Source: an uncultured Candidatus Saccharibacteria bacterium (GTDB taxonomy: Bacteria > Patescibacteriota > Saccharimonadia > Saccharimonadales > Saccharimonadaceae). Taken from it: a stretch of 32,000 bases of DNA. A program made the translations under genes and the position numbers. Within the stretch, counting starts at the first letter, position 1; every line of letters begins with the position of its first letter. The stretch spans positions 1 to 32,000 of the forward strand of contig CAYYWC010000006.1 of the NCBI GenBank assembly GCA_964475295.1. Direction: 5' to 3'. Shown one piece after another: positions 7,065 through 32,000 of the stretch. The notes beneath the pieces are model-generated. The model did no database searches. It saw only the letters and a list, made by a program, of their open reading frames with translations, and was not told the origin of the DNA.

Positions 7065-7655
7065 CTATTGAATACGGACACGTCGCTGCGGAGGCACAAC
7101 TTTTGCAGCCTTAACGCGCGCAATATCAGGCCCTGAAGCGGTACGCGCACCACTCAAGCGGCGCAAGACAATCTTAAGCTGAGATGCATATGTGTGCTTA
7201 CCGCTGATCACAATGAACGGATCCGCATCCTTAAGTGGCGTGAATTTCTTTATAGCAGTATCGTACACAGCCGCAGAGACACCTTGCTTGAGTGCCCGCG
7301 CTCGTGACGTAGCAGTGTCCGTTTGCACCCATACAAAAAGTGGTTCATAGCCAGCCTTACGTATCTGCTTCTCAAGATTTTTTCGAGATACTTGCGTTGT
7401 CATGTCGCCCTCGTATAAAACTGTTGCGCCTGTCTTCATCATCTGATCAAGCATCAAATCAGCAACACGCTGCACAATCACCTCTTCATCCTTTGAAAAG
7501 GTTGGCTCGTTAAATAGCTCACCCCTGACGGCACCCCAGCTTACGATTGGTGCCGAGAATGTTTTTGCAAAGTGTTCCGCAAAAAAACTTTTTCCCGAAC
7601 CAGGTACACCTACCATGATGACAACATGCGGCACTGCTAAACTCAACGACTTCAT
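7065..7655 (-). CDS. P-loop kinase (AAA_33 / zeta-toxin / PNK-like fold)
   Basis: Track ORF 7065..7793 trimmed to ATG 7655 (MKSLSLAVPHVVIMVGVPGSGKSFFAEHF), which puts the Walker A motif right after the start. The longer form would overlap the divergent glgB start and adds only low-complexity hydrophobic sequence. Confidence 0.65.
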   Translation of the reverse strand: MKSLSLAVPHVVIMVGVPGSGKSFFAEHFAKTFSAPIVSWGAVRGELFNEPTFSKDEEVIVQRVADLMLDQMMKTGATVLYEGDMTTQVSRKNLEKQIRKAGYEPLFVWVQTDTATSRARALKQGVSAAVYDTAIKKFTPLKDADPFIVISGKHTYASQLKIVLRRLSGARTASGPDIARVKAAKVVPPQRRVRIQ

Positions 7656-7728
7656 GACGATAGTATAGCAGATGTTTGACAGATACACCATGACGCTCAC
7701 ATAAGCATAAGCTGGTATACTAAAGACC

Positions 7729-9690
7729 ATGAAGATCCCCACTATTGCTGATATTGACCCGTGGCTTGAGCCGCACAGAGAAGCATTAACCAAGCAGCAG
7801 ATTTATATACGTGAGACGTCTGATAAAATTCTTGAACAGTCGTCACTACACCAGTTCGCGCTTGGACATCTCTACTTCGGGCTTCATCGAACTGACACTG
7901 GCTGGATAGTGCGCGAATGGGCGCCAAATGCAACACGTATATTTCTGCTCTGCGCTGCCAATACTTGGGCCGACACAGAAGCATACCGTTTCTCACAGAA
8001 AGATCACGGCATATGGGAGCTTCAACTTCCATTAGATGCGCTCAACCACGAAGACCATTGCAAGCTTCATGTTCATTGGCGCACCGGGTCGGGTCATCGC
8101 ATCCCATCCTATGCAACATACGTTGTCCAGGATAAAGAAACACATCTTTTTGATGCTGCTGTATGGCAACCCGACAGTCCATACATATGGAGCCACACCG
8201 CCCCAGAAACCCCTCGTGTACCACTTATCTACGAAGCGCACATAGGCATGAGTAGCGAGGAGCCTACCGTTGCCACCTATCGGCACTTTACAGACCTCAT
8301 CCTACCTCGCATCAAGTCACTCGGATACAATACGATTCAACTTATGGCAATCCAGGAGCATCCATACTATGGCAGCTTCGGCTATCATGTATCAAATTTC
8401 TTCGCTGCGAGCAGTCGCTTTGGCACACCGACTGACCTCAAGCGTCTTATCGACACCGCTCACGGCATGGGTTTGCGGGTTATTATGGATATTGTTCATT
8501 CGCACGCTGTTAAAAATGAAAATGAAGGATTGAGCCGCTTTGATGGTACGCTAACACAGTATTTTCACGACGGCGATCGGGGTAATCATACCGCATGGGA
8601 TTCACGAACGTTTGACTATGGCAAGCCAGAAGTCGTTCACTTCCTCCTTTCGAACCTGCGGTTCTGGCTGGACGAATATCAATTTGATGGTTTTCGATTC
8701 GATGGTGTTACGAGTATGCTCTATCACGATCATGGACTTGAGAAGGCGTTTGGTAGTTATGATGATTATGTCTCGTACAATGTTGACCTTGATGCATTGA
8801 CCTACCTGAACCTAGCGACTCAGCTTATTCATACTGTCAATCCCTCGGCCACTATTATCGCTGAAGATGTGAGTGCCTTTCCTGGCCTGGCAGCGCCTGT
8901 CGCTCTTGGTGGAATTGGCTTTGATTATCGGCTCAGCATGGGCGTGCCCGATCTTTGGATTAAAATACTCAAAGAGCAACGTGACGAAGACTGGAATCTC
9001 GGTCATCTTTTTCATGAACTCACCGCCCACAGACCAGAAGAGAAGACGATTAGCTACGCTGAAAGCCATGACCAAGCACTGGTCGGCGACAAAACGCTTA
9101 TCTTCCGCCTTATCGATAAGGCGATGTATGATCACATGCAACGTGACGATACCGACCTAACCGTTGAGCGCGGCATAGCGCTCCATAAGATGATCCGTCT
9201 CCTCACCGCAAGCACCCACGCCGGTGGATATCTCACATTCATGGGTAACGAGTTTGGGCACCCAGAGTGGATCGATTTTCCTCGCGAAGGTAATAACTGG
9301 TCATATCACTACGCTCGTAGACAATGGAGTCTCGCAGACAACCCTGCACTAAAATACCAGTGGCTCCACCATTTCGACACATCACTCACGGGGTTTATTC
9401 AACGCCTTACCGATTCACTATATCACTACGTGACTATCGATGAAGATAGGAAGCTTCTCTCATTTGTCCGAGATGATCATCTCTTTGTCTTTAACTTCTC
9501 ACCAGATACATCCTACACGAATCATACTATTCCAACATTCTCGGGCGACTACTCTGCTATCCTCTCGACAGACAGCGCACCCTATGGCGGTCAGGACCGT
9601 ATCGACACAAAGATGACCTACCATGCCGAAAACCAACAAGTCTCTCTGTACATACCAAGCCGAACCGCACTTGTCCTAAAAAAGCACTAA
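7729..9690 (+). CDS. glgB: 1,4-alpha-glucan branching enzyme, GH13 (eukaryote/plant-like GH13_8 type)
   Basis: 653 aa. GH13 conserved regions DIVHSHA, GFRFDGVTSMLYHDHG, IAEDVS and AESHDQALVGDKT. The FRFDGVTSM form of region II is the one I associate with eukaryote-type branching enzymes rather than classical bacterial GlgB. Confidence 0.85.
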   Translation: MKIPTIADIDPWLEPHREALTKQQIYIRETSDKILEQSSLHQFALGHLYFGLHRTDTGWIVREWAPNATRIFLLCAANTWADTEAYRFSQKDHGIWELQLPLDALNHEDHCKLHVHWRTGSGHRIPSYATYVVQDKETHLFDAAVWQPDSPYIWSHTAPETPRVPLIYEAHIGMSSEEPTVATYRHFTDLILPRIKSLGYNTIQLMAIQEHPYYGSFGYHVSNFFAASSRFGTPTDLKRLIDTAHGMGLRVIMDIVHSHAVKNENEGLSRFDGTLTQYFHDGDRGNHTAWDSRTFDYGKPEVVHFLLSNLRFWLDEYQFDGFRFDGVTSMLYHDHGLEKAFGSYDDYVSYNVDLDALTYLNLATQLIHTVNPSATIIAEDVSAFPGLAAPVALGGIGFDYRLSMGVPDLWIKILKEQRDEDWNLGHLFHELTAHRPEEKTISYAESHDQALVGDKTLIFRLIDKAMYDHMQRDDTDLTVERGIALHKMIRLLTASTHAGGYLTFMGNEFGHPEWIDFPREGNNWSYHYARRQWSLADNPALKYQWLHHFDTSLTGFIQRLTDSLYHYVTIDEDRKLLSFVRDDHLFVFNFSPDTSYTNHTIPTFSGDYSAILSTDSAPYGGQDRIDTKMTYHAENQQVSLYIPSRTALVLKKH

Positions 9691-16898: not shown

Positions 16899-18242
16899 AT
16901 GACCGCATCAACGGTCATTAACGACGTCGTCATTCGCTCCGCAGGAGCTGACGACTTCGAGTGGGTCGCTGATCTCATGGTTCGGGCGCTCAGTCCGTTC
17001 TATGACGGCGACCACCGTGCACACGCACGGCGCATTTTCGATACACACATGGAGGGAGGTATCGACCGTGTCGGTCACTTCTCGGCTGGACAGTACATGT
17101 TCATTGCCGAACAGGACGGGCAGCCGGTCGGACTAATCCACGTCGTGGAGAAGAAGCAAGAGACGGTAAAGATCAGTCCGCTGATCGTCAGCACCGACTA
17201 CCGTGGGAAGCTGGGAATCGGAAGCATGCTGCTCAGGCACGCTGAAGACTTTGCCCGCGACCTCGGTGCTCGGCAGCTGTACTGCACCGTCGCCTCGCCG
17301 AACCAGAAGGCGCTGGGGTTCTTCCTCCGGAGGGGCTTCCGCATCACCGGAACGGCGAAGGATCACTACAAGCAGGGCATCGACGAGCACATGCTGTACA
17401 AGCAGCTGGTCGATGAGCCGGGTTTCGACTCGCCCAACGTTTCAGTGATCCCCTTCGACGAGGAAGCGCACGCTGATGGTGCGCGCGACCTCATCCTTTC
17501 GCAGATGAGTAGCGTCTTTCGCGGTGTGGACGACGACTGGGTTGACGCCCTATACGCCGGCTACAAGCGAAAGGAGCTTGGCGACGTTAATGCCAAGTTC
17601 AAGATCATCTTCACTGCCGAGTGTGGCGGTGAGGTGGTCGGTATCGCCGGTGCTACGCCCAAGAAGGGGCAGCCCATCAAGCTGATGCCGCTCGTGGCGA
17701 AGTCGGAGGTAGCGTTCGAAGCGCTCGTCATTGATCTTCAGGGGCTACTGATGGACTACGGTCACAAGCTATACGTTCACTTGGTTCCTGAGCCGTGGCA
17801 GGTCGCCTGTCTCCAGCGCCATGGCTGGACACTGGAAGGCGTGTTCCCTGGCGGGTACGCACCGAACAGCGTCGTGCAGCAGTGGGGACTCAACTTCAAC
17901 AAGGAGGGAGCAACCGTGCGTAAGATGCGCATCAAGCGTCCGTATTTCGATGAAATCATGTCGGGTCGTAAGACCTTGGAGGTTCGCGTCGGATACGACA
18001 ACATCAAGCGCCTGAAGGCTGGTGAGCTATTGCAGCTCGAGACTGGACACACCTCGGGTGTGGTGCGGATCAAGTCGATCCGCGTCTACGACAACTTCGC
18101 CGACATGTTGGCGACGGAGCCGTGGCGCGAGATCGTTCCGCAGGTCGACAACCAGACGACCGCCCTCCGGCTCCTGCGCGAGATCTACCCCGCACACAGG
18201 GAACGCCTCGGCATCCACGTCATCGAGGTTGAAAAGCAGTAG
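16899..18242 (+). CDS. tandem GNAT N-acetyltransferase domains fused to a C-terminal ASCH domain
   Basis: 447 aa. GNAT 1 has motif A, STDYRGKLGIGSMLLRHAEDFARDLGARQLY...ALGFFLRRGF. A second, degenerate GNAT-like domain covers about residues 185-330. The C-terminus is MRIKRPYFDEIMSGRKTLEVRVGYDNIKRLKAGELLQLE...YDNFADML...GIHVIEVE, the same ASCH subfamily as the upstream gene. GC content is markedly higher than the flanks. Confidence 0.8.
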   Translation: MTASTVINDVVIRSAGADDFEWVADLMVRALSPFYDGDHRAHARRIFDTHMEGGIDRVGHFSAGQYMFIAEQDGQPVGLIHVVEKKQETVKISPLIVSTDYRGKLGIGSMLLRHAEDFARDLGARQLYCTVASPNQKALGFFLRRGFRITGTAKDHYKQGIDEHMLYKQLVDEPGFDSPNVSVIPFDEEAHADGARDLILSQMSSVFRGVDDDWVDALYAGYKRKELGDVNAKFKIIFTAECGGEVVGIAGATPKKGQPIKLMPLVAKSEVAFEALVIDLQGLLMDYGHKLYVHLVPEPWQVACLQRHGWTLEGVFPGGYAPNSVVQQWGLNFNKEGATVRKMRIKRPYFDEIMSGRKTLEVRVGYDNIKRLKAGELLQLETGHTSGVVRIKSIRVYDNFADMLATEPWREIVPQVDNQTTALRLLREIYPAHRERLGIHVIEVEKQ

Positions 18243-21377: not shown

Positions 21378-22520
21378 TTAATTTAAGAGACAGCGAACCC
21401 CGGCCCCGAAGTTGCGATTGTCGTAGCCATCGCCCGGGTAGAAATCGCTCGGATCGAAGCTCGCGAAGAAGGCGTAGTCCGGGTGGTCTGGGCTAGCAGA
21501 AGCAGACCACAAGGTACCCGCGTCGCCCTGAAAGCCAAAACCGCCGTACCAGCGGCCTGAGAACGACCCTTTAAATGGTCCAGACGGTTGCCACTTTGCG
21601 ACACTCGGACCGCCCGCACCTGTCCCGCCAAAGGCCACATCCAGCTGCCAGAGGTCGCTGCTTGGAGATCCACTGGTTGGAAGTCGCCAGTTAGCTGGAC
21701 AGATGGAATACTGGGCATTGCCGGAAGTAAAGGTGGTTCGCGTTTCCCCTGCGGTGGCTGCTGGGAAGTTGTAAAGATAGCCGTAGTTGGTAGCACCTGA
21801 GCCGGTGTCGCCAGGGACGGGGCCGTAGGCACGTGGGTTGTCATAGTCAGCCGTTCCGCCGGTTGTCAGCTGTGGCAGGGTGAAATTGCTGGCTACGTTG
21901 CTATCGGCTGGTGTGAGCGTGATTGACCCGCTGGTACTCCCGAGCTTAAGGTTGGTGAGCATCCAGCAGTTGCCGTCGGCAAGCTTGGCGACTTCGTAGT
22001 ATTGGGTGGTAGGACCACGGGTGTCGGCTAGGGAGATGATGGCATCAGCATTAGTGCCAGTGTAGGTATCGAGAGCGTCACATTGAGCTGCGGTAAAGTT
22101 TTGCATGGTAGCAAGTTCTGGTTCAGGTGGAGTGGTTGGGTTAGTGGGGTTGGTGCCGTCGCCTGGAGCTGGAGCTTCGGGACGATTGAGAGGGTCGGTG
22201 GTGCAGATAATAGTGCCGTTAGCTTCATAGTAGCAGCGCGACTCACCGGCGGCTGCTTGACCCTTGCCTGCACCAGTGGCAGTACCGAGGGTGCTCTGGG
22301 AAGAAGCACTATCGCTGGCCGGCGTAGCTGCGTTGCTGGCCTGCACAGCGGTATCCGAGCCGCCAGCAGCGGAGACGGCGGCGCGGTGCTGGATAAGTGT
22401 GAAGGCGGCCAGAAGGATGATAACGAGAGCAACGGTGGCGATGATAATACTACGGGGCTGATGTGAGATACGACGTAGTATAGTAGTTAGCGCAGCAGCT
22501 GTTGTAGTTATTTGTTTCAT
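21378..22520 (-). CDS. secreted/anchored protein with a low-complexity Ala/Thr/Pro linker and a C-terminal FISUMP (Fibrobacter succinogenes major paralogous, C-lectin-like) domain
   Basis: 380 aa. N-terminal anchor IIIATVALVIILLAAFTLI, then an A/S/T/G/P-rich linker. FISUMP hallmarks follow: LADTRGPTTQYYEVAKLADGNCWMLTNLKLG, CPANWRLPT and the terminal GAGVRCLLN. GC-rich. Confidence 0.75.
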   Translation of the reverse strand: MKQITTTAAALTTILRRISHQPRSIIIATVALVIILLAAFTLIQHRAAVSAAGGSDTAVQASNAATPASDSASSQSTLGTATGAGKGQAAAGESRCYYEANGTIICTTDPLNRPEAPAPGDGTNPTNPTTPPEPELATMQNFTAAQCDALDTYTGTNADAIISLADTRGPTTQYYEVAKLADGNCWMLTNLKLGSTSGSITLTPADSNVASNFTLPQLTTGGTADYDNPRAYGPVPGDTGSGATNYGYLYNFPAATAGETRTTFTSGNAQYSICPANWRLPTSGSPSSDLWQLDVAFGGTGAGGPSVAKWQPSGPFKGSFSGRWYGGFGFQGDAGTLWSASASPDHPDYAFFASFDPSDFYPGDGYDNRNFGAGVRCLLN

Positions 22521-22597: not shown

Positions 22598-23365
22598 GTG
22601 CAGTGGTGGGTGCACGATGTTATCTGGGGAGAGTATAGCATAGGCGGGATGAAGGTGTCTAGGGGAAACACGAAATACACCAAAAAACCTAGCCATATTC
22701 TAGAAAAACTTTCTAACTACAACGAAAAGGTAAGATTCGACGGTGTTTTACACTGTAGAAAATGTGATTACTTTTATGCCGACAAGCACAATTTCAATGT
22801 TTTCCTTAAGCACAACAAGCACGATGTAGCAGCACCGCGAAAAGAAATACAAATTCGTAACAATAAAATCTATTACCCTAGTTTTTGGAATGGCGCCCCG
22901 GATTCAGTACTTAGTCGCTACGGCTATTCTGCAGATGGCACGCTGCAGCAAAAGTCTAGGAGAAAGGTAATCTCCTACATAGTTGGAAGTAAGAGGATTA
23001 CTCCAGATGATTATACGGAAAACAAGCTACGCTACGACCAAGAAATAAGCCGTGTAAAACAGCAGATCGAACGGCTAGAAGAAGCCGATAAAAGCTTCTA
23101 CGTTACGGCTTCGTATCTGTTACAGCTATTCAAGCACGGCGAAAAGATTTTTGAATTAGCAAGTATAGAAGAAAAGCGTGAACTTCTGAAACTCGTGCTA
23201 TCGAACCTCGAATTAAAAGACAAAACGGTCCGTTTTACACCTAACGAACCGTTTGCTACTGTACTTAAATTGTCTGAACGTTCTACTTGGCAGGGGTACA
23301 TGGATGAAGATAGAACTTTTTACTCTGTTAGTGAAAACGCTATTTTAGGAGGCAAAAATGTTTAG
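22598..23365 (+). CDS. protein with a Cys/His-rich N-terminal region and a C-terminal half matching the coiled-coil/C-terminal domain of large serine recombinases (no catalytic resolvase domain)
   Basis: 255 aa from GTG 22598; alternative start ATG 22649 (MKVSRGNTKY). The C-terminal EEADKSFYVTASYLLQLFKHGEKIFELASIEEKRELLKLVLSNLELKDKTVRFTPNEPFATVLK...WQGYMDEDRTF matches the conserved tail of large serine recombinases (ekAD..yy.....ll.la......f......eKr.ll..vlsNl.l.......pf..l...W......RT). The N-terminus has HCRKCDYFYADKHNFNVFLKHNKH (CxxC...HxxH). The catalytic Ser domain is absent. Confidence 0.6.
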   Translation: MQWWVHDVIWGEYSIGGMKVSRGNTKYTKKPSHILEKLSNYNEKVRFDGVLHCRKCDYFYADKHNFNVFLKHNKHDVAAPRKEIQIRNNKIYYPSFWNGAPDSVLSRYGYSADGTLQQKSRRKVISYIVGSKRITPDDYTENKLRYDQEISRVKQQIERLEEADKSFYVTASYLLQLFKHGEKIFELASIEEKRELLKLVLSNLELKDKTVRFTPNEPFATVLKLSERSTWQGYMDEDRTFYSVSENAILGGKNV

Positions 23366-23804
23366 GTTAAATTCATCCTCTCTTTATGACCAGTCTACAT
23401 TTTATGATAGGTTTTATAAGGATCTTCGGAGTGCAAAACGCCGCGTAGTTATAGAAAGCCCGTTCATTACTCAGCGTCGTTCTACGCCCCTACTCGCCAC
23501 CATATCAAGGCTCAAAAAGCGCAGAGTCGAGGTTATAGTGAATACAAAACCGATCGAGGAGCATGATTCACAATATCAAGATCAAGTGGCTGTAGTTGTC
23601 GAAATGCTACAGAATCTGGGCGTGAGGGTGTTATTTACAATAGGTCACCACAGAAAGATCGCTATCATCGATGACATACTCTACGAAGGTAGCTTGAATA
23701 TACTGTCTCAAAACGATAGCTGTGAGCTGATGCGTCGCATAGATGACGCCTCATCGGTACAAGAGATACTACGCTTCACAAGACTGGAAAAATGGTGCAA
23801 ATGA
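23358..23804 (+). CDS. single-domain phospholipase-D-family (HxK) nuclease
   Basis: 148 aa. GHHRKIAIIDDILYEGSLNILSQ is the HxK(x)4D...GSxN PLD/Nuc motif. Its start overlaps the upstream stop by 8 nt. Confidence 0.8.
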   Translation: MFRLNSSSLYDQSTFYDRFYKDLRSAKRRVVIESPFITQRRSTPLLATISRLKKRRVEVIVNTKPIEEHDSQYQDQVAVVVEMLQNLGVRVLFTIGHHRKIAIIDDILYEGSLNILSQNDSCELMRRIDDASSVQEILRFTRLEKWCK

Positions 23805-23805
23805 T

Positions 23806-24315
23806 ATGATAGGTAGTATGGAATATCTAGGGTTAAGTGCCGGAGTCTTATTTGGTCTTGCGTACCTACACTTTTCACAAGCTATCGACTGGATTCTTGT
23901 CGTGCTTCACTATGCGTTCTTTAGGTCAAAAGATAGTTTCTACGGGTTGTATGACAATACTGAGCAAGAATCGGTTTATGAGCATCTGAAGTACGCAGAA
24001 ACAATAGCTGTAAAAGACTATGCCGATTATCTGCGCATACACCAGTCAGCTCGACCTTCGGCGTATAAGCGATTCAGAAAATATTACGACACGCTATTGC
24101 GAGTGATCTTGGTTCGTGTTTTGCCTATCACACTGCTGCCAGCTATCTTGTTCTGGTCTAATTGGTATTACTACATCGGAGGCATACTCATAGCATTTAC
24201 TGTATTGGCACTCTATGCGATTATCGTAAAACCACGCGGTGCTGGTGCCCGTAAGCGACTGATGGTGTTTGCTGTGATGCGAGACTACCTAAAGGACAGC
24301 AATAAGTCTAAATAA
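23806..24315 (+). CDS. membrane protein (2+2 TM) of unknown function
   Basis: Track ORF 23743..24315 trimmed to ATG 23806 (MIGSMEYLGLSAGVLFGLAYLHF), 1 nt after the PLD stop. There are two N-terminal and two C-terminal hydrophobic helices around a charged middle. Confidence 0.55.
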   Translation: MIGSMEYLGLSAGVLFGLAYLHFSQAIDWILVVLHYAFFRSKDSFYGLYDNTEQESVYEHLKYAETIAVKDYADYLRIHQSARPSAYKRFRKYYDTLLRVILVRVLPITLLPAILFWSNWYYYIGGILIAFTVLALYAIIVKPRGAGARKRLMVFAVMRDYLKDSNKSK

Positions 24316-24702
24316 TCTCCGCTACGTCTTTTAGCTGATTCGGATTTTTCTTTAAGTCAATCAAGGTAAAATTATCTGTTGCGTTGTGCTGCTCAAGCAC
24401 CGTCAGCTCATCTTCCCACAGATCATCGTCTAGCCATATAAACTTCTCCGAGAAGTTTAAGCCGTCCGTTTTCATTTCATTCCAGACGGTCGGCTTAATT
24501 TTGTCGAGCAGCGGCACGGTCTCCGGCTTGAGATGTGGCGCAAGTACTTCTTTAGTTCTGTTCTCGCCGCGCCAGTTGTGAGTCGTTAGCCAGTAGGTAG
24601 AATCAGGATATGCTGCACGTCTTGCAAGAACTCATCCGCATAATTTGTGGCGCTATCTTCGTTTGCTAGTAGTACTCCGTCAATGTCTAAGTAAACATTC
24701 AT
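24308..24702 (-). pseudogene. stand-alone HAD-like gene, frameshifted near 24612; paralog of the C-terminal domain of the RT chimera
   Basis: ATG 24702 reads MNVYLDIDGVLLANEDSATNYADEFLQDVQHILILPTG and then stops. Another frame, offset by one nucleotide, continues AAYPDSTYWLTTHNWRGENRTKEVLAPHLKPETVPLLDKIKPTVWNEMKTDGLNFSEKFIWLDDDLWEDELTVLEQHNATDNFTLIDLKKNPNQL (the track shows only the last 69 aa). It is collinear with residues 228-355 of the RT-HAD ORF. The start lies 3 nt after the stop of the NUDIX-SAHH-like gene. Confidence 0.7.
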
Positions 24703-24704
24703 GG

Positions 24705-26393
24705 CTAAGCATCATATTTATAAATATAGTCAACCCAGGCATCAGCTATTGCATTCTGCCTAGCCTTATCGTTTGTTTCCAGCTTGTGCTCCTTTTGCTT
24801 ACTGTCCCTACGCTCATATAGTGAAATAACACTACTCACCAACTCACCTTGTACTAGATAGATATACTTATCAACTGCCGCAGAGTACAAGAAGTTAACG
24901 GCATTACCATCATTCAATAGATGGAAGTGGTGACCTCTCTTTGAGTAGCGTGTAATATCTTTGGTAATTTTATCTTTTGAGTACTCGCTATCAATAAACC
25001 GCAAATCAAATTCATCATCTGACGATGTGACGGACGCCAAGAACGCGCCTCGCTTCAGATCTCTTAGTCTCAGGATATCTATTGCTTGTGACCCTGTCGC
25101 ACAGAAAACGACGTCGCTATTGCGCAGTAGATGACCAATAGGTACTACTCTTGCTCCATCGCACGAAGCCTGGACAGCACGCATAGCGTCAATCTCACAG
25201 ACATACGGCTGGACGCCACGCTGCTGTAAGTACTGAAATATGCCTCTTCCTATTTTTCCGTAACCAATAATGCCGCAGCTTTTGTAGGTAATGAGTGTAT
25301 TTAAGTCACGCAGTACCGTCTCGGCAGCATGAGCCACTCCGTTGCCAACCAATTGATCTTCAAAGCTCTTCAGCGGACTGCGAGCAACGGATATAACACG
25401 GAGATTATCCGGCATATTTTTTTCGTATTTTTGATGGCCATTTTCTGTATCTTCGACGACACCAAGTAGCTTCTTGCCTAGTTTCTTCTTAATTGAGGTG
25501 ATGCTCTCGCTAAAGTAGCCACCGATATCTACCATGCAAACATTGTCATATTTATCGAGGTAATTCGATATTTCGTCGGGGTTGCTCGTGATGCTTTCTC
25601 GAGTGAACTGACTGAGGATTGGTATATCTTTATCTGTTAGAAGAGCTTTGGTTCTTTTATTGATTGAGTTGGGCTTTGGGATTATTCCAATAAGATTGAA
25701 GTTTTCTTGCAAGCTAAGAATATAGCTCTCTGAGCTTGGGATAATATGCGACACTGCTATAACCGATATTTCTTTCCCTTGGTTATCTGCAATTGATCTA
25801 AAAAAATCACGTGGATTTGGCTCCAGCAAGCCCTCAATTCTATCGACAATAACCGTGAAGTGTGGGTCGTCTGCAAAAACCTCCCAGTCGACCCACTGGA
25901 AGCCATTTGATTCGTTAAGATCAACATTTATGTCAGACTTTTCAGTAATGTACAGATAACGAAAGTCGTGATGGTAATGTCCAGGCTCATTTTTGCGTGG
26001 ATTTTCTGGTATATAGTGGCTGTCGATATGGAACGGCACAATCGGATGATTACGCAAGACAGGCTGAAGGACTAACTCATCGGGTTTCAGTCCAGTTTCT
26101 TCCTCTACTTCTCTCAGTGTAGCCTCTAATGGCGAACCGTCTTCCTTGTCAATGTGCCCTCCGGGTTGTAGTAGCTTGCCGAGCGACTTATGCTGCAAGA
26201 GAAGTACCTGTCGTGTAAACTTGTTGATTACGAAAGCACTTGCAGTAATATGCCCGACAAAGTTCTTGCGTGATGTTATATCCTGATCATTCTGCTCGAG
26301 CTGTTCCGCAAGTAGCTTAAGGTTATTGACATCTTCAGTGTGGTTATCTATGTATTTCTCGTATAGTTCTTTAATCTGCATTAACTTTCCCAT
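24705..26393 (-). CDS. fusion of an N-terminal NUDIX hydrolase with a complete S-adenosylhomocysteine-hydrolase-like (NAD-binding) module
   Basis: 562 aa. Nudix box GGHIDKEDGSPLEATLREVEEETGL. The C-terminal 350 aa or so are collinear with the SAHH fold: GVVEDTENGHQKY (compare GvsEETTTGvhRL), VISVARSPLKSFEDQLVGNGVAHAAETVLR (compare inVNDSvTKskFDNlYGcreSl.dgi.R), and CGIIGYGKIGRGIFQYLQQRGVQPYVCEIDAMRAVQASCDGARVV...SDVVFCATGSQ (compare vvGYGdVGKGcA..lr..GA.V.vtEiDPi.AlQAamdG..V...DIfvTaTGn). Confidence 0.8.
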   Translation of the reverse strand: MGKLMQIKELYEKYIDNHTEDVNNLKLLAEQLEQNDQDITSRKNFVGHITASAFVINKFTRQVLLLQHKSLGKLLQPGGHIDKEDGSPLEATLREVEEETGLKPDELVLQPVLRNHPIVPFHIDSHYIPENPRKNEPGHYHHDFRYLYITEKSDINVDLNESNGFQWVDWEVFADDPHFTVIVDRIEGLLEPNPRDFFRSIADNQGKEISVIAVSHIIPSSESYILSLQENFNLIGIIPKPNSINKRTKALLTDKDIPILSQFTRESITSNPDEISNYLDKYDNVCMVDIGGYFSESITSIKKKLGKKLLGVVEDTENGHQKYEKNMPDNLRVISVARSPLKSFEDQLVGNGVAHAAETVLRDLNTLITYKSCGIIGYGKIGRGIFQYLQQRGVQPYVCEIDAMRAVQASCDGARVVPIGHLLRNSDVVFCATGSQAIDILRLRDLKRGAFLASVTSSDDEFDLRFIDSEYSKDKITKDITRYSKRGHHFHLLNDGNAVNFLYSAAVDKYIYLVQGELVSSVISLYERRDSKQKEHKLETNDKARQNAIADAWVDYIYKYDA

Positions 26394-26427
26394 ATCGCTA
26401 TTATAGACTAGATTATCTCTTAAAACT

Positions 26428-26442
26428 ATGCTATTATAGCAT
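26428..26442. promoter_or_regulatory. 15-bp palindrome ATGCTATTATAGCAT in the divergent promoter region, with a second GCTATTATAG copy at 26397-26406
   Basis: 7-bp arms ATGCTAT/ATAGCAT around a central T. The 10-mer GCTATTATAG is repeated 33 nt away. The reverse complement of the first copy gives TATAAT (26405-26400), 6 nt from ATG 26393, which implies a leaderless NUDIX-SAHH mRNA. The second copy reads TGCTATTAT, an extended -10-like sequence for the + strand kinase gene. Confidence 0.4.
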
Positions 26443-26460
26443 CAAATCGTGTAATTTTCA

Positions 26461-27069
26461 ATGGAGCGAAATGTGAAGTTACCAGAAATTATCGGAATAA
26501 GCGGAACGAACGGAGCAGGCAAAGATACGCTTGCTGCCCTGCGCTACGAAAGAGAAGGTGCTGAGCATGTCAGCCTTAGTGATATATTGCGCAGAGAATT
26601 AACTATGCTCGGCGTCCCTCTTGAGAGAGAAAATCTCATGAATCTGAGTAGACAGTGGCGCGATGAAAGCGGAGATTACGGAATATTGGCCACACGCACA
26701 ATTCAACGATACCTCGGAGACAAAGCCGTTACATCAACCCTAAACGGACTATCAATTGTCAGTGTACGACACCCCGATGAAGCAAGACGTATCAAAGAGG
26801 CTAACGGTAAGATTTTTTGGGTTGATGCTGACCCGAAATTAAGATACGAGCGCATCCAGTCAGGCGGTAGAAATCGAATCGATGATCGAAAAAGCTTCGA
26901 AGAGTTTATTGATGAAGAGCAACGCGAAATAAGTCCAATCGATTCTGATCCAGCAAGCGTTAACTTGGGTGAAGTGTCACGCATTGCTGATGTAAAGATT
27001 GAAAACAATTTTGATGACGAATCAGCATATATCGACTTCTTGCTTGATCGATATTTCTCCGAGTGCTAG
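26461..27069 (+). CDS. P-loop nucleoside/nucleotide kinase (CoaE- or dNMP-kinase-like)
   Basis: 202 aa. Walker A IGISGTNGAGKDTLA (GKDT as in dNMP-kinase/CoaE-like small kinases). Size and helix pattern fit the NMP-kinase fold. Confidence 0.65.
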   Translation: MERNVKLPEIIGISGTNGAGKDTLAALRYEREGAEHVSLSDILRRELTMLGVPLERENLMNLSRQWRDESGDYGILATRTIQRYLGDKAVTSTLNGLSIVSVRHPDEARRIKEANGKIFWVDADPKLRYERIQSGGRNRIDDRKSFEEFIDEEQREISPIDSDPASVNLGEVSRIADVKIENNFDDESAYIDFLLDRYFSEC

Positions 27070-27080
27070 CGGGCTTCCTT

Positions 27081-28295
27081 CTATATAGATTTACAGACTT
27101 CTATAACACGGCTAGCGACTTTCTTGATATCATTATCGCTCGAATGAATATTGATACCAAAGGCAGATCCGAGTCCACCGTCGACAACTCCAACACTAAC
27201 GTTGACACAGCGACTTAGGATATCGTCAGTTTTTGGCAGATCACCTGCGTGAGTGAACTTACCCTGGGCAGACCAATTCTTGGTCGGTGTCTTATGTTCG
27301 ATGATCTGCTCCATATTACTGTAAACGTGCCAACCAGATTCTGATAAGGGCATATTTCCTAACTGCTCACTAACTTTCTTTGCCATTTCTTTGGTGTCAA
27401 AAATTACTGTCAGCATTGTTGCACACTCGCCATCGACATCATTGATTTTCCTAAAGGACAGTCCGGAGATGTTCGCTTCTTCTATGTAACCCTTCAGTTG
27501 CCGCTTCTTCTCGCGTAAGACTTGCAGCATTCCTTCCAGTTTTCTTGCCTGAGCCAGTGCAACCGCACCAGATAGCTCGTTCATCTGAAAGTTAAGTCCT
27601 ACGAGACTCCTGTTTCCCACCTCTTTACCACTCCTGTTGGGCATGTGACCTTGGTCGCTAATGGCAAAAGCTCTTTGGTGCAAGGCGTCATCATCGGTGA
27701 CGATAATACCGCCACTACCCGCAGCAATGTTCTTGTGTTGATTTAGCGAGAATGCTCCGATATCTCCAAATGTACCGAGCTTCTTTCCCTTAAAAGACCC
27801 TCCTGCCGCCTGGCACCCATCTTCAATCACAAAGAGGCTGTGCCTCTTGGCTATATCCATTATGGCATCCATATCGCAAGGATTGCCGAGCATATGAACC
27901 GGCATAATAGCCTTCGTTTTCTCTGTAATTTTACTTTCCAAGTCCGTAGGGTCGATAGTAAGAGATTCATCCACCTCGACCAATACAGGTGTGGCACGAG
28001 AATAGATGATTGAGCCGATTGACGCCACAAAGGTGTAGCCGGGAACCAATACCTCGTCGCCTTCCTGCAGGCCAAGAGCGAGTAGTGATATGAATAATGA
28101 GCCCGTACCAGAACTGTTCGCAATGGCGTGGCGAGATCCTAGGTAGTTGGCAAATTCTTGCTCGAGTGAGTAGACCTTATGCTTGAACTTAGGGTCGTCG
28201 AGACTACCGTACCGAGATAAATAACCGCTCTCAAGTACATCCAGTACCTCTTTTCGCTCCTCGTCGCCAAAACTATATGCACCCGGACCAGCCAT
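27081..28295 (-). CDS. DegT/DnrJ/EryC1/StsC-family PLP-dependent aminotransferase
   Basis: 404 aa. NSSGTGSLFISLLALGLQEGDEVLVPGYTFVAS, FVIEDGCQAAGG, and the PLP-lysine region AFSLNQHKNIAAGSGGIIVTDD. The N-terminal ...YLSRYGSLDDPKFKHKVYSLEQEF insertion resembles the glutamine:scyllo-inosose (StsC-like) subgroup. Confidence 0.85.
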   Translation of the reverse strand: MAGPGAYSFGDEERKEVLDVLESGYLSRYGSLDDPKFKHKVYSLEQEFANYLGSRHAIANSSGTGSLFISLLALGLQEGDEVLVPGYTFVASIGSIIYSRATPVLVEVDESLTIDPTDLESKITEKTKAIMPVHMLGNPCDMDAIMDIAKRHSLFVIEDGCQAAGGSFKGKKLGTFGDIGAFSLNQHKNIAAGSGGIIVTDDDALHQRAFAISDQGHMPNRSGKEVGNRSLVGLNFQMNELSGAVALAQARKLEGMLQVLREKKRQLKGYIEEANISGLSFRKINDVDGECATMLTVIFDTKEMAKKVSEQLGNMPLSESGWHVYSNMEQIIEHKTPTKNWSAQGKFTHAGDLPKTDDILSRCVNVSVGVVDGGLGSAFGINIHSSDNDIKKVASRVIEVCKSI

Positions 28296-28339
28296 AGCTC
28301 TCCTCTCTCTTTAAGGGTATTGTATATACTACAATATTA

Positions 28340-28348
28340 TGCTATAAT
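28340..28348 (+). promoter_or_regulatory. extended -10 promoter TGCTATAAT for the + strand operon, with an adjacent palindrome ATTGTAtatacTACAAT (28319-28335)
   Basis: TGnTATAAT at 28340-28348. The RBS ACGGAGG at 28395-28401 precedes ATG 28411. The 6-bp-arm palindrome immediately upstream could be an operator. Confidence 0.4.
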
Positions 28349-28410
28349 TGCGTAAATATCAAGGTGTCGTAAAAATATCGTAATATTGAGTGATACGGAG
28401 GTTGGGCAAG

Positions 28411-29418
28411 ATGGGTAAAATTCGTATAGGGTTGATTGGATATGGCCGTTTAGGTTCAATTCATGCTGAAAATATCAACAAATCAGAATATGCCGAGCTT
28501 TATGCGGTATGCGACACCAACTCTGATGTGCTATTTGAAGCGAAGAAACTCTATGAAAATATCCTGACTTTCGACAGCCTGGATGATTTTCTAAAGGCGC
28601 CTTTTGATGGGGTTGTTATCGCCTCAAACACACATTTGCATGTCGAGCACATAAAACTAGCAGCTCAAGCCGGCAAGCATATATTTACCGAGAAGCCGAT
28701 TGGACTAACATTGCCAGAGACTGATGAAGCCCTACAGGACGTAGTGAACGCTGGCGTCAAATTCCAAATTGGCTTTCAGCGGCGCTGGGATCCTCGATAC
28801 TTAGAAGTAAAAAGAATAATTGACAGTGGCAAGATTGGTACACCTGTGCTATTCAAGGCGTACGGGCGTGACCCGAACGCCTCGAATCCTGACAACTGGG
28901 GCCTGGACAAGAACGGTGGACTGTTCTTGAACGCCGCCATCCATGACTATGATGCAGCTCGATTCTTGCTTAAGCAGGAGGCGCTTGAAATTTCTGCAAA
29001 CGGCGCAGCACTTGTGTATACCGACCTCAGAAAATACCAAGATATTGATACTTGTGCGACCACAATATTGATGAGCAATGACACTATGGCAATTACCGAA
29101 TGGAGTCGTTATGCTTCCTACGGATACGATATCTCTGCCGAAGTAATAGGCACAGATGGCGTCATTCGGATAGGCAATGAGCAAGATAGCGGCGTGACAT
29201 TGCGACTGCGAAACGAGCGGTCTCCTAAAGTAATCGATGTTTTCCGAGATTCGTACGCGGCCGAGATAGACGCTTTTGCGCTCGCAATCAAAAACGACAC
29301 TGCGCCAACACCGGGCATTGAAGATGCACGAATCGCGCTTCATCTTGCATTGCTAGCTAGACAGTCGTTTGAAGAAAGTAAGGTTATAAAGGTGACCAAT
29401 CCTGCAAAACTGGACTAG
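28411..29418 (+). CDS. Gfo/Idh/MocA-family NAD(P)-dependent oxidoreductase (IolG-like)
   Basis: Trimmed to ATG 28411 (MGKIRIGLIGYGRLGSIHAENI, the Rossmann GxGxxG). EKP motif FTEKPIGLT, GFQRRWDPRY and AIHDYD, as in inositol/sugar dehydrogenases of this family. Confidence 0.85.
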   Translation: MGKIRIGLIGYGRLGSIHAENINKSEYAELYAVCDTNSDVLFEAKKLYENILTFDSLDDFLKAPFDGVVIASNTHLHVEHIKLAAQAGKHIFTEKPIGLTLPETDEALQDVVNAGVKFQIGFQRRWDPRYLEVKRIIDSGKIGTPVLFKAYGRDPNASNPDNWGLDKNGGLFLNAAIHDYDAARFLLKQEALEISANGAALVYTDLRKYQDIDTCATTILMSNDTMAITEWSRYASYGYDISAEVIGTDGVIRIGNEQDSGVTLRLRNERSPKVIDVFRDSYAAEIDAFALAIKNDTAPTPGIEDARIALHLALLARQSFEESKVIKVTNPAKLD

Positions 29419-29421
29419 ATT

Positions 29422-30036
29422 ATGAGTACCGAGCTATACCTCATACGACATGGAGAAGCGGCCAATAACGTGCGGCAGAATTATATCGCAGGACGTAGCA
29501 ATCATTTTCCGCTAACAGAAAATGGCGTAGAGCAATCACGCAAATTGGGCGCTGCCTTACTGGGCATAGGCTTATTGCCAGATGTCGTATACTCCTCTCC
29601 GGCAGTCCGAGCACTCCAAACTGCACGTCACACACTTAATGCAATGTCGTACAAAACCTTGATACACGAGGATGACCGCCTGCAAGAACAAGATGTTGGC
29701 GAATGGGTTGGACGTGTGGCGACGGAAGTATTTACGGATGAGCAAGTTGCCGAGATTGATAGGCTTGGAAAAGAGTTCCGGTCTCCTGGTGGAGAATCAT
29801 TCAATGATGTGGGTGACAGGACGTACGAATGGGCTGATTCAATAGTTGACGACGGACGTATATTTGCCTTCACTCACGGTGGTACTATCCGCTGCCTCGC
29901 ATCGAGGCTAGAGTCTTGGTCGCACCCTCAAACGTATCAGACACGCCCTGGCAATACGTCGGTAAGTCTGTTGACGCGCACTAGCGGTGATTGGCAATTA
30001 GAGTATATAGGAAAAGATGTAGAGGAGATAAAATAG
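29422..30036 (+). CDS. histidine phosphatase superfamily (phosphoglycerate-mutase/CobC-like) phosphatase
   Basis: 204 aa. The N-terminal LYLIRHGEAANN (RHG catalytic motif), PLTENGVEQS and VYSSPAVRALQTA, plus a C-terminal FTHGGTIR (second catalytic His). Confidence 0.8.
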   Translation: MSTELYLIRHGEAANNVRQNYIAGRSNHFPLTENGVEQSRKLGAALLGIGLLPDVVYSSPAVRALQTARHTLNAMSYKTLIHEDDRLQEQDVGEWVGRVATEVFTDEQVAEIDRLGKEFRSPGGESFNDVGDRTYEWADSIVDDGRIFAFTHGGTIRCLASRLESWSHPQTYQTRPGNTSVSLLTRTSGDWQLEYIGKDVEEIK

Positions 30037-30753
30037 ATGACTGGGCAGGAAGTTCCGCAGGAGATTACAGCTCGCCTCACGGCAGACGCTCTCATTAAAT
30101 CGAGCCTTAAATCGGTTATTTGGTTCGGCTCTGTAAGGAACAGTCAGGATGTGCATGACCGCTCGGACTGTGACCTGCAAATCGTATTAGATAAGCCTTC
30201 ACACGAACTTATCGTTGCCGTCAACGCCACACTGGAGGACTATCCGAGCGTTGACCTGAGTATTATGTATATGCAAGACATATACAATCATGCAGGCGAT
30301 GTCATATTTCATGATGGCACAAAAAGCCTCTTCTTCATGTATGTGCTTGCTGTCGGAGAGATACTGTATGGCGATAATGTCTACGCAGGTATAGTAAAAA
30401 ATCTAAGCCTCGATGACATACGGCCATCTCTGTTGGTAACGATACGTGAGTATCTATCGCGACTACGAGTCATGGCCATTCAGCAGACAAATGACACGCT
30501 TGGATTCAAGAAGTACAGTCTCAAGCTATTCAAAGATACCCTGGTATACATTGGCGAGGAAAAGCCCGAAGCCATTTCTGCTATTACGAATGATACTGCC
30601 AAGGAGGCGATACAGCACATCTATCCTTTCAGCAACGGATCAACAAAGGCACTAGACGACATTACAAATTATGACAGAAACTACACGCGCGAAGAAATGG
30701 CTTATCTTCTGACGGATTACGAGAACATTATAGAAAGACTTTGCAATGAATAA
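30037..30753 (+). CDS. minimal Pol-beta-superfamily nucleotidyltransferase with a helical C-terminal domain (ANT/KNTase-like architecture)
   Basis: 238 aa. VIWFGSVRNSQDVHDRSDCDLQIVLD is the GS-x(9-13)-D-x-D NTase motif, followed by about 130 aa of predicted helices. The ATG directly abuts the upstream stop. Confidence 0.7.
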   Translation: MTGQEVPQEITARLTADALIKSSLKSVIWFGSVRNSQDVHDRSDCDLQIVLDKPSHELIVAVNATLEDYPSVDLSIMYMQDIYNHAGDVIFHDGTKSLFFMYVLAVGEILYGDNVYAGIVKNLSLDDIRPSLLVTIREYLSRLRVMAIQQTNDTLGFKKYSLKLFKDTLVYIGEEKPEAISAITNDTAKEAIQHIYPFSNGSTKALDDITNYDRNYTREEMAYLLTDYENIIERLCNE

Positions 30754-32000
30754 TATCGAGAAAATACCAGCACTCTCTCCGAGCGTCGAACTCGAGGATA
30801 AGTCTCCGGGCGATTTTGGAGAGATTAGACAAGACGTTGCCGAGCGCCTATTCAAGGATCCGTCCTATACGGCGTTTGACGCAATGGCCGAAATGTCTGC
30901 GGCTGCCGAAGAATATATCAATAAACTTTCAAATCAATATCCCGGTCTCAAGCTATGGGTCGGCGGCTCTCTTGGTCGTCGCGAGATGCTCCCAAATTCA
31001 GATATTGACCTCTTTGTCATATATGATGACGAGGACTACGAAGAGAGTGATATCAGAGTTGATGGAGTTGATAAATTCGAGGTCGGACATATTAGTAAAA
31101 GCCGGCTGCACGACTTGTTGAATTATTCACTAGTTGATGCCAACCGTTTTATTGACGGGAGAATGGTCGGTCATGTACCTGCTCACGATATAGAAAGCAT
31201 GATCCTCGAAGCAAACACCCTCGACCACCAGCTCGCTAACAATATTAGTGAATATTTCTTCTATCGTTATTTTGACTTCCCAAATAAAACCACGCCTATG
31301 GGGCCAAATCTAAAATACAGTACTGGATCAAGTAGAGATACCATTTTCTTCAATATGATTTCTCGGATGAGTACGGGTAATTTCCCTGCTATACGAGGTG
31401 ATAATCCTGAGCTGCCAGAAGTTATGGCTGATGCCGAAGAGCGGTATGGTCTGCGTGCGCCATTTAAGGCGACGGATCTGCTTTTTACGGTAAAAAATGC
31501 AGCTATATCTGTCTACGATAAAAGTGGCGATATGCGTAACCGATATGTGTCTCCGACGAGCTTAGAGGCTATCTACGAATTCGCTAAAGATAAGTTTCAA
31601 GCATGGGGTATCGAGGATAGCGGACAATTTATCGAAACTTACTCGGCAGCGAGACAGGAGCTAGAATATACAGTTGATACGATGTTGACGCGAGTTCTTT
31701 CTGAGTATCCTGCGGTAGAATCTTTTGAGCAAGTCCTGAAAGCAACGCCGAAACGCTTACCGGGGCTTTGTGTTGAGCTTATCAATAGCGATTCTGATTA
31801 TCCGCACTCTGTCGCTGCCTTCAGCACATGGTACGCCTCTACCGGACGAGTAGACGGAGCTAGTATGGAAAGAATTGCCGATGAGCTGATGAAGCAACCG
31901 CTAGATCGATCATGGGGTGCACTCATGGCAGTCGCGTGCTGCCCCTACACTCCAGACTCTACGCTCTCAGAGCTGGCTGATTGGTTGTACGAGAACGAAA
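30746..32000 (+). CDS. GlnD/GlnE-like nucleotidyltransferase (partial; continues past the window end)
   Basis: Absent from the track because it has no stop in the window. ATG 30746 overlaps the upstream stop (ATGAATAA). My translation is open to 32000: ...LWVGGSLGRREMLPNSDIDLFVIYDDE (NTase motif as in PII uridylyltransferase), ...LVDANRFIDGRMVG and GPNLKYSTGSSRDTIFFNMI (compare GlnD P.iKeg.GGlRDi). Confidence 0.75.
   Translation, partial: MNNIEKIPALSPSVELEDKSPGDFGEIRQDVAERLFKDPSYTAFDAMAEMSAAAEEYINKLSNQYPGLKLWVGGSLGRREMLPNSDIDLFVIYDDEDYEESDIRVDGVDKFEVGHISKSRLHDLLNYSLVDANRFIDGRMVGHVPAHDIESMILEANTLDHQLANNISEYFFYRYFDFPNKTTPMGPNLKYSTGSSRDTIFFNMISRMSTGNFPAIRGDNPELPEVMADAEERYGLRAPFKATDLLFTVKNAAISVYDKSGDMRNRYVSPTSLEAIYEFAKDKFQAWGIEDSGQFIETYSAARQELEYTVDTMLTRVLSEYPAVESFEQVLKATPKRLPGLCVELINSDSDYPHSVAAFSTWYASTGRVDGASMERIADELMKQPLDRSWGALMAVACCPYTPDSTLSELADWLYENE

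Follow-up and report, generated by a model that had tools for sequence, protein, structure and literature searches.

A nucleotidyltransferase pair at the core of a modular Saccharibacteria gene cluster that may build and nucleotidylate an amino-cyclitol or amino-sugar

A gene cluster at positions 24308-32000 of a 32,000-nt stretch of DNA (hereafter the window) from an uncultured Candidatus Saccharibacteria bacterium (contig CAYYWC010000006.1) is described here. It encodes two nucleotidyltransferases (NTase1 and NTase2), an IolG-type oxidoreductase, a DegT-family aminotransferase, a histidine phosphatase, a P-loop kinase, a fusion of a NUDIX domain with a module resembling S-adenosylhomocysteine hydrolase (SAHH), and a frameshifted HAD-like gene. 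Co-conservation of these genes is far above chance, and it is the NTase pair that forms the invariant core rather than the dehydrogenase with the aminotransferase. The cluster matches no described pathway; no published account of it came up in literature searches that combined Nudix with SAHH clusters or Saccharibacteria with inositol and aminotransferase. The initial annotation of this DNA had proposed an undescribed pathway to an amino-nucleoside or aminocyclitol. That idea survives, but its emphasis moves to the NTase pair as the core, with the fusion and kinase as a separable module. The explanation tentatively favoured here is that the pathway makes an amino-cyclitol-like or amino-sugar-like compound and nucleotidylates it.

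The main evidence comes from a comparison of loci retrieved with two queries, the fusion protein (85 loci) and NTase2 (32 loci). Ten families are kept together in Saccharibacteria: a 2H phosphoesterase (2H), a PfkB kinase, a member of the endonuclease/exonuclease/phosphatase family (EEP), NTase2, NTase1, the histidine phosphatase, the oxidoreductase, the DegT aminotransferase, the P-loop kinase and the NUDIX-SAHH-like fusion. The order of the genes within this set varies, with at least four arrangements. In some loci the pair of kinase and fusion genes lies beside the DegT gene, in others between 2H and PfkB, and elsewhere the fusion gene follows EEP or comes directly after NTase2. Because the linkage survives rearrangement, it is strong evidence of a functional tie, and the genes can be regarded as a co-conserved functional unit, now of ten families. 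The initial interpretation is supported in part: the genes are co-conserved, but the NUDIX-SAHH/kinase pair is separable and absent from the actinobacterial version of the cluster. NTase1 adjoins NTase2 in 27 of the 32 dereplicated NTase2 loci and in all 11 that are well flanked; the oxidoreductase, DegT and phosphatase genes are present in 9 of these 11. The NTases, for which activation or self-resistance had been suggested, are the invariant core and not accessory resistance genes. In four Saccharibacteria loci, the phosphatase and NTase1 form a single open reading frame (ORF) of 429-449 aa (L011:9565-10854, L012:14560-15894, L097 and L111). Minimal versions also exist, in which only NTase1, NTase2 and EEP, with or without 2H, are found (L090, L091 and L108); one of them, L090, sits among ParE/RelB toxin-antitoxin pairs on a relaxase-bearing contig.

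Outside Saccharibacteria, Rhodococcus and soil contigs carry a five-gene core (oxidoreductase, phosphatase, NTase1, NTase2 and DegT), which in a Blastococcus locus lacks the phosphatase. Identities of these copies to the window proteins are 56-61% for DegT, 45-53% for the oxidoreductase, about 45% for the phosphatase, 40-46% for NTase1 and 37-42% for NTase2. The core is joined there by two oxygenases, one of the PhyH type and one of the 2-oxoglutarate-Fe(II) type, and the fusion, P-loop kinase, PfkB, EEP and 2H are missing. The actinobacterial copies (L086-L089 and L092) stand in defence-island-like surroundings, with a CHAT protease, tetratricopeptide repeat (TPR) proteins, a RES toxin, an OLD nuclease, AbiEi and transposases. 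These copies also have an inserted gene for a TPR-like protein (488-513 aa), which separates the oxidoreductase gene from PhyH. Every adequately flanked NTase block of Saccharibacteria has a NUDIX-SAHH gene beside it, and the P-loop kinase adjoins the fusion gene in 10 dereplicated loci. In a genome scan that was not selected for NTase2, 4 of 8 Saccharibacteria-type fusion loci have no NTase block within 10 kb. The fusion and kinase genes form a module that can be separated from the rest and also stands alone or in other clusters.

The gene map of the window, from ORF positions with Pfam and NCBIfam domain calls, has all eight genes at their expected places:
24308..24702, minus strand: HAD-like gene, frameshifted (pseudogene); translation starts MNVYLDIDGVLL, which is HAD motif I; peripheral
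24705..26393, minus strand: fusion of NUDIX and SAHH-like NAD-binding domains, 562 aa (module A); Pfam NUDIX and AdoHcyase_NAD
26433..26461, minus strand: promoter-like site 5' of the fusion gene, within a 67-nt divergent region; consensus match only
26461..27069, plus strand: P-loop kinase, 202 aa, UPF0200/AdkA-like (module A); AAA_17/18, PRK08356
27081..28295, minus strand: DegT-family aminotransferase dependent on pyridoxal phosphate (PLP), 404 aa; Pfam DegT_DnrJ_EryC1, E 6e-79
28390..29418, plus strand: IolG-type Gfo/Idh/MocA oxidoreductase; likely start is the ATG at 28411; TIGR04380 is the best model
29422..30036, plus strand: histidine phosphatase (branch 1), 204 aa; Pfam His_Phos_1, E 5e-39
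30037..30753, plus strand: NTase1, 238 aa, pol-beta NTase with helical C-terminal domain; weak Pfam Polbeta NTase match
30746..32000, plus strand: NTase2, first 418 of about 452 aa, running off the window; NTP_transf_2, weak GlnD/DUF294 matches
L001:3560-4276 (L001 is a 95%-identical metagenome contig): broken EEP gene, beyond the window end

The initial annotation fared well on these points: its gene places and domain labels are borne out, the terms IolG-like, ANT-like, GlnD-like and NUDIX-SAHH-like are correct, and the coordinates reproduce its gaps of 3 nt between oxidoreductase and phosphatase, 0 nt between phosphatase and NTase1, and -8 nt between NTase1 and NTase2. The remainder of the window resembles an ordinary Saccharibacteria chromosome, in agreement with the reduced genome that had been supposed. 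The operon continues past 32000, as had also been said. In L001, the 452-aa NTase2 is followed by the broken EEP gene, the PfkB kinase, the 2H phosphoesterase and then genes resembling those of type IV secretion systems. EEP is split into a 64-aa Exo_endo_phos fragment and a 123-aa ORF in L001-L003, and is intact (~238 aa) in other loci; the nearest relatives of the family profile are sphingomyelinase C and beta-hemolysin, not nucleases. The frameshift already noticed in the HAD-like gene is a 4-bp deletion relative to an intact 132-aa orthologue in L001, and among the compared loci this family is restricted to the closest relatives, L001-L003. Together, the broken EEP and HAD-like genes suggest some decay in the lineage of the window. 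The 2H protein, whose gene also lies beyond the window, keeps two intact H-x-T/S motifs in its L001 orthologue (PLHSTIV and LPHATVQ), which scores 33.1 bits against Pfam 2_5_RNA_ligase2 (cut-off 27). At the cluster edge in Saccharibacteria, a small NlpC/P60 peptidase gene recurs (L006:3108-3587, L009:4068-4568, L011:4135-4620, L098, L099 and L101).

The two core proteins differ in what they resemble. NTase1 has the motif series GS...DxD...D, with G31, S32, D44, D46 and D73 invariant. Its AlphaFold2 model has a predicted local distance difference test score (pLDDT) of 91.7, and the best Foldseek match is AAD(9) (6xz0) at template modelling (TM) scores of 0.62/0.60, with AadA (5lpa) at 0.57, both domains being matched. 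AAD(9) and AadA are adenylyltransferases for spectinomycin and streptomycin. As modelled, NTase1 is a two-domain protein of the ANT(9)/AadA-like fold, where ANT stands for aminoglycoside nucleotidyltransferase. Family membership does not extend to the level of sequence, at which NTase1 matched no Pfam or NCBIfam ANT model; profile searches of the PDB with NTase1 and NTase2 returned noise-level matches to the NTase motif only. For NTase2, a model of the 92%-identical protein P0121 (pLDDT 92) gave the N-terminal domain of GlnE (1v4a, TM 0.45-0.47) as the best fold match, followed by ANT(4'). The likeness of NTase2 to GlnE and GlnD lies in this fold match and in the GlnD-like motifs GSxGRxE...SDxDL and K..GS.RD. 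It differs from them in that the TM score is only about 0.45, sequence scores are at noise level, and no PII or glutamine synthetase context surrounds the gene. NTase2 is also rare: a profile search of 1.84 billion representative proteins yielded 134 relatives, 29 of them at E <= 1e-30, and all but one are shorter than 540 aa, too short for full-length GlnD or GlnE. A plasmid tblastn search with NTase2 gave no match, and a scan of viral contigs found no NTase2. Both NTases are acidic (pI 4.5-5.2), as aminoglycoside NTases are.

The oxidoreductase scores 294.7 bits against the NCBIfam model TIGR04380 (iolG), with the next models at 97-105. Its six best PDB matches comprise five inositol dehydrogenases together with the full-length homologue 3ezy, whose deposited name is only 'Dehydrogenase', and the alignments run end to end. 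The protein retains EKP, GFQRRWD, RDP, IHDYD and SYGYD. Among 21 orthologues, the NAD site (GLIGYGRLG, AVCD) and the catalytic Lys in FTEKP are kept in all, and the substrate motifs GFQRRWD and SYGYD are present, Q and W being variants of the first motif. GF(M/N)RR(Y/F)D and YGY are substrate-binding motifs and group-i markers of myo- and D-chiro-inositol dehydrogenases (PMC9603128).

The aminotransferase is a clear DegT protein (Pfam 266 bits against a cut-off of 19.8), in which FSLNQHKNI carries the PLP-binding Lys of the S-x4-K motif. Its best solved relative in the PDB is KdnA (5k8b, 244 bits, aligned nearly full length), the Kdo8N transaminase of Shewanella, whose substrate is a free sugar acid without a nucleotide handle. 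Perosamine synthases and an entry named glutamine-scyllo-inositol transaminase follow at about 181-185 bits, and then BtrR (146), NtdA (126), RifK (118) and WbpE (117 bits). The setting is not that of KdnA. No Kdo or lipopolysaccharide genes surround the cluster, and KdnA itself works with a metal-dependent alcohol oxidase, not with a Gfo/Idh/MocA enzyme.

From the observed gene content, linkage, folds and motif states, substrates and an order of steps may be inferred. The cluster would be a modular and horizontally mobile small-molecule pathway, with the translationally coupled pair of ANT(9)/AadA-like NTase1 and GlnE-like NTase2 as its core, presumably fed by a three-enzyme module of oxidoreductase, DegT and phosphatase. 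The IolG-type NAD dehydrogenase would oxidise a hydroxyl group on a cyclitol or sugar, which may be phosphorylated, the KdnA-like aminotransferase would turn the ketone into an amine, and the histidine phosphatase would take off the phosphate. The product may be a scyllo-inosamine-like amino-cyclitol or, with lower likelihood, an amino-sugar, to which NTase1 and NTase2 would attach a nucleotide (as a nucleoside monophosphate). The additions found in Saccharibacteria, namely the sphingomyelinase-like EEP, 2H, PfkB and the NUDIX-SAHH/P-loop kinase pair, could supply, trim or recycle nucleotide and phosphate parts. A cyclitol or sugar is favoured as the substrate because of the motifs of the oxidoreductase, the free-sugar type of the aminotransferase and the aminocyclitol-adenylyltransferase-like NTase1, which is fused to the phosphatase in some genomes. 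The closest known parallel of this kind is the aminocyclitol branch of streptomycin and spectinomycin biosynthesis (StrI/StsC, SpcB/SpcS2). There, too, an inositol-dehydrogenase-type oxidoreductase adjoins a DegT aminotransferase; further points in common are steps by a phosphatase and a kinase, and an NTase that has the complete ANT(9)/AadA architecture. The cluster differs from that branch in lacking glycosyltransferases, an amidinotransferase and inositol-phosphate synthase, in having a DegT nearer to KdnA than to BtrR-type inosose transaminases, in the Asn-for-Asp exchange in the oxidoreductase that is described below, and in adding a GlnE-like NTase, EEP, 2H and the NUDIX-SAHH-like protein.

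Several observations weigh against a cyclitol or sugar substrate. The iolG score of the oxidoreductase is below the model cut-off of 355. The Asp of its catalytic triad (Asp172 of BsIolG, four residues before His176) is replaced by Asn (GGLFLNAAIHDYD), the His being present, and this Asn is invariant in 21 of 21 orthologues, in Saccharibacteria and Actinobacteria alike. In Corynebacterium glutamicum, paralogues resembling inositol dehydrogenase that deviate at the triad-Asp position showed no inositol dehydrogenase activity (PMC9603128). The protein is therefore called IolG-type here and not filed as IolG, and a reasonable guess is that its substrate is a modified inositol, phosphorylated or substituted. 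As to NTase1, TM scores of about 0.6 and identities of 14-16% in the modelled comparison leave its substrate unfixed by the fold. The minimal versions of the cluster have neither dehydrogenase nor aminotransferase, so that the NTase substrate does not depend on these two enzymes, and this, together with the Asn substitution, weakens the cyclitol or sugar reading. A nucleotide-directed NUDIX-SAHH gene beside every adequately flanked NTase block of Saccharibacteria would fit a nucleoside substrate equally well. Finally, no inositol-supply gene, transporter or glycosyltransferase was seen.

The nucleoside alternative draws on the fusion protein, in which NUDIX spans residues 48-173 and the part resembling AdoHcyase_NAD and adenosylhomocysteinase spans residues 200-560. 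The Nudix box GX5EX7REUXEEXGU is satisfied (GGHIDKEDGSPLEATLREVEEETGL), and the Pfam NUDIX score is 47.4 bits against a cut-off of 21.1. Scores of the SAHH-like module are far lower than the cut-offs of the housekeeping models, 85.7 against 497.6 for ahcY (TIGR00936) and 92.6 against 275 for NF004005. Its residues were read from an alignment to SAHH structures in the PDB and from a family alignment of 22 members, in all of which the NAD site GYGKIGRG, K342, D346 and H216 are invariant. Of the human residues, His55, Glu156 (as Asp), Lys186, Asp190 and Asn346 have retained equivalents, whereas Asp131 has become an invariant Ile290, His301 an invariant Ser457, and His353 is gone. The C-terminal tail that caps NAD is missing. 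Asp131 and His301 are the residues for C4'-H abstraction and leaving-group chemistry. Mutagenesis of AgmF, the SAHH-like and NAD-dependent dehydratase in angustmycin biosynthesis, showed that its counterparts of His55, Asp131, Lys186, Asp190 and His301 are all essential (PMC8599513). With two of these lost, SAHH- or AgmF-type elimination is probably not performed by the module; judged from its residues, it probably still binds NAD and oxidises a ribose-like hydroxyl. What the fusion shares with SAHH and AgmF is the SAHH fold, the NAD site GxGxxG and counterparts of Lys186, Asp190 and His55; what sets it apart is the Ile and Ser in place of Asp131 and His301 and the extra N-terminal NUDIX domain. 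The NAD-binding and catalytic residues on which the earlier idea of SAHH-like 3'-oxidation turned are accordingly present for binding and oxidation and missing for elimination. A canonical housekeeping SAHH role was rejected, as scores (86 bits against 498) and residues both fail.

The fusion family is large and widespread. In Firmicutes (L024, L025 and L027-L030, from Parvimonas, Streptococcus sciuri, S. porcorum, Tissierella and Butyrivibrio), the gene lies between those of a 957-aa adenylation-thiolation protein resembling nonribosomal peptide synthetases and a major facilitator superfamily (MFS) transporter, an arrangement that looks like a compact three-gene cluster of the aminoacyl-nucleoside type. 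In Streptomyces and Kitasatospora, at L050:1287-12445 and about 20 further loci (L046-L085), it belongs to an island of lower GC3 (G+C content at third codon positions), with genes for a thymidylate-synthase-like protein, a carbamoyltransferase, an S-adenosylmethionine-dependent methyltransferase, His_Phos_1, APH-like kinases, an NAD epimerase and a CTP_transf_3 cytidylyltransferase. Several of these loci, L050 among them, have the fusion divided between two reading frames. In two metagenome-assembled genomes, one labelled Micrarchaeota and one of Bacteroidetes (L032 and L033), it occurs with NDK and a CYTH protein, and the viral-contig scan returned four weak relatives of 32-34% identity. SAHH-like-only versions of about 370 aa, without NUDIX, are found in Neptuniibacter and Neptunomonas (L044, L052-L059) and in Amphritea (L045, L073, L078); those of Neptuniibacter adjoin a gene for what appears by sequence to be a PAS-GGDEF protein. 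The partner kinase has a family profile nearest to archaeal UPF0200 structures of the SSO1041/AdkA-like type (E 6e-13).

A puromycin-type route would use these proteins to reach a nucleotide or nucleoside of the 3'-amino-3'-deoxy type. The 3'-OH of a nucleotide would be oxidised by the oxidoreductase, by the SAHH-like module or by both, and then aminated by DegT; NUDIX and phosphatase would strip phosphates, the kinases would re-phosphorylate, and the NTases would use or neutralise the analogue. Such a 3'-amino-nucleoside product ranks second after the amino-cyclitol or amino-sugar and is rather unlikely. The enzyme roles that the initial annotation had given for this route are confirmed by the literature: Pur10 is the dehydrogenase, Pur4 the aminotransferase, Pur7 the Nudix enzyme and Pur3 the phosphatase, and this core also occurs in the A201A, cystocin and Photorhabdus ADG clusters (PMC11641026). 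The likeness of the present cluster to it is at the level of enzyme class, all four classes being present in Saccharibacteria but not in the actinobacterial version, which has no Nudix gene. The retained NAD site with Lys342, Asp346 and His216, and the loss of the elimination residues, make a plain 3'-oxidase conceivable, and the constant nearness of the fusion to the NTase block in Saccharibacteria and its nucleoside-cluster-like settings in Streptomyces and Firmicutes point in the same direction. However, the oxidoreductase keeps inositol-binding motifs and has iolG as by far its best match, the cluster phosphatase (His_Phos_1) is of a different family from Pur3, and no Pur6-, Pur5- or Pac-like tailoring or resistance genes are present. 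In addition, the Nudix domain is fused to an SAHH-like domain, unlike in the puromycin core, and the actinobacterial version has neither.

If the minimal unit of NTase1, NTase2, EEP and sometimes 2H is taken as the essence of the system, a module for nucleotide signalling, toxicity or defence can be imagined. The NTase pair would make a nucleotide product (a 2'-5'- or 3'-5'-linked oligomer, or a nucleotidylated target) that EEP and 2H degrade, much as PDE12 and AKAP7-type enzymes degrade 2-5A, and the dehydrogenase, aminotransferase and phosphatase would be lineage-specific additions. Both HxT motifs of 2H are intact, there are weak similarities to HalB, CD-NTases and MntA, and the neighbours are suggestive: ParE/RelB pairs around L090, and CHAT-TPR, RES, OLD and AbiEi genes beside the actinobacterial copies. 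Against this, PADLOC models give nothing above noise for the cluster proteins, NTase2 was found neither on viral contigs nor on plasmids, sphingomyelinases, not nucleases, are the nearest relatives of the EEP profile, and both NTases have an acidic pI. This explanation also leaves the dehydrogenase and aminotransferase pair without a role, and it is considered unlikely.

A kanosamine-type route is less probable again. It would follow the logic of NtdC, NtdA and NtdB, a triad of dehydrogenase, aminotransferase and phosphatase, by which a sugar phosphate is oxidised, transaminated and dephosphorylated. The same triad of enzyme classes is in the cluster, NtdA is among the PDB relatives of the aminotransferase (126 bits), and the Asp-to-Asn exchange could reflect a charged substrate; but NtdA and RifK are far below KdnA in score, the oxidoreductase motifs are of the inositol-dehydrogenase type, and the phosphatase family is unlike NtdB. 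Instead of biosynthesis, the cluster might serve to salvage or detoxify a compound taken from the host (an aminocyclitol, an inositol lipid head group or an aminoglycoside), which would suit a host phylum, Actinobacteria, that is rich in inositol compounds, as well as the sphingomyelinase-like EEP and an NTase1 fold which is that of aminoglycoside-inactivating enzymes, and dehydrogenase/aminotransferase pairs can run catabolically. This is nevertheless an improbable explanation, given that the cluster has no downstream catabolic (iol) genes or transporters and that Actinobacteria themselves carry the same core. Synthesis of a UDP-3-amino sugar for a surface glycan, of the WbpB/WbpE type, was the third reading of the initial annotation, and only the family-level pairing of Gfo/Idh/MocA with DegT speaks for it. 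It is rejected on the scores of both enzymes (DegT 117 bits to WbpE against 244 to KdnA; oxidoreductase 97 bits to UDP-GlcNAc 3-dehydrogenase, NF040723, against 295 to iolG) and on context, as no glycosyltransferase, flippase or polymerase adjoins the cluster in any of the 32 loci. RNA repair, a reading of kinase, 2H, phosphatase, NTase and Nudix, was considered but found less convincing, as it leaves the dehydrogenase and aminotransferase without a function and the NTases are acidic.

As for expression, promoter-like sites are present in both divergent intergenic regions that had been proposed to hold promoters. One is strong (26461-26433, minus strand), with TTGAAA, a 17-nt spacer and TATAAT at 11 of 12 matches and a TG preceding the -10 (extended -10). 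Promoter and terminator scans, however, found such sites to be no more frequent than in shuffled sequence. Just upstream of the cluster, at 22598-24315 of the window, are three overlapping plus-strand genes, for a 255-aa ORF of no assigned function, a 148-aa PLD-like protein and a 190-aa protein with hydrophobic, membrane-like segments. The PLD-like protein matches the C-terminal domains of Mokosh MkoC/MkoB, the sole PADLOC match, which lies outside the cluster proteins. Patches of high GC (0.58-0.59 against about 0.45 elsewhere) occur at 16899-18242 and 21378-22520; one encodes a GNAT-ASCH fusion protein and the other a 380-aa low-complexity protein, probably secreted, with a weak Fib_succ_major domain. 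At 7065-7793, a gene for a Zeta-toxin/AAA_33-like kinase adjoins that of a YgjP-like metallopeptidase and overlaps the start of a gene for a glycogen-branching-type enzyme.

Actinobacteria are the phylum of the usual hosts of Saccharibacteria, whose own genomes are tiny and provide for little biosynthesis. An accessory cluster that is conserved in them with as many as ten genes, and is shared in part with the host phylum, is therefore a strong candidate for a source of a molecule acting between epibiont and host. In its widest and least assured form, which is something of a long shot, the proposal is that a horizontally exchanged pathway, common to Saccharibacteria and Actinobacteria and centred on a previously undescribed pair of ANT-like and GlnE-like NTases, makes a 3'-amino nucleotide or an amino-cyclitol linked to a nucleotide, and that this product serves as a toxin or signal where epibiont and host compete, or against phage; the fusion would then represent a new family of NAD-dependent nucleoside or nucleotide oxidases, which also seeds uncharacterised nucleoside-type clusters in Streptomyces and Firmicutes. 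Three uncharacterised enzyme families are open to direct testing, namely the rare GlnE-like NTase, the ANT(9)-like NTase and the widespread NUDIX-SAHH-like fusion, and the ANT(9)-like NTase1 might show the origin of the NTases of aminoglycoside resistance. Should the product prove to be a nucleotidylated aminocyclitol or a 3'-amino nucleotide, uncultivated bacteria would have yielded a new bioactive scaffold.

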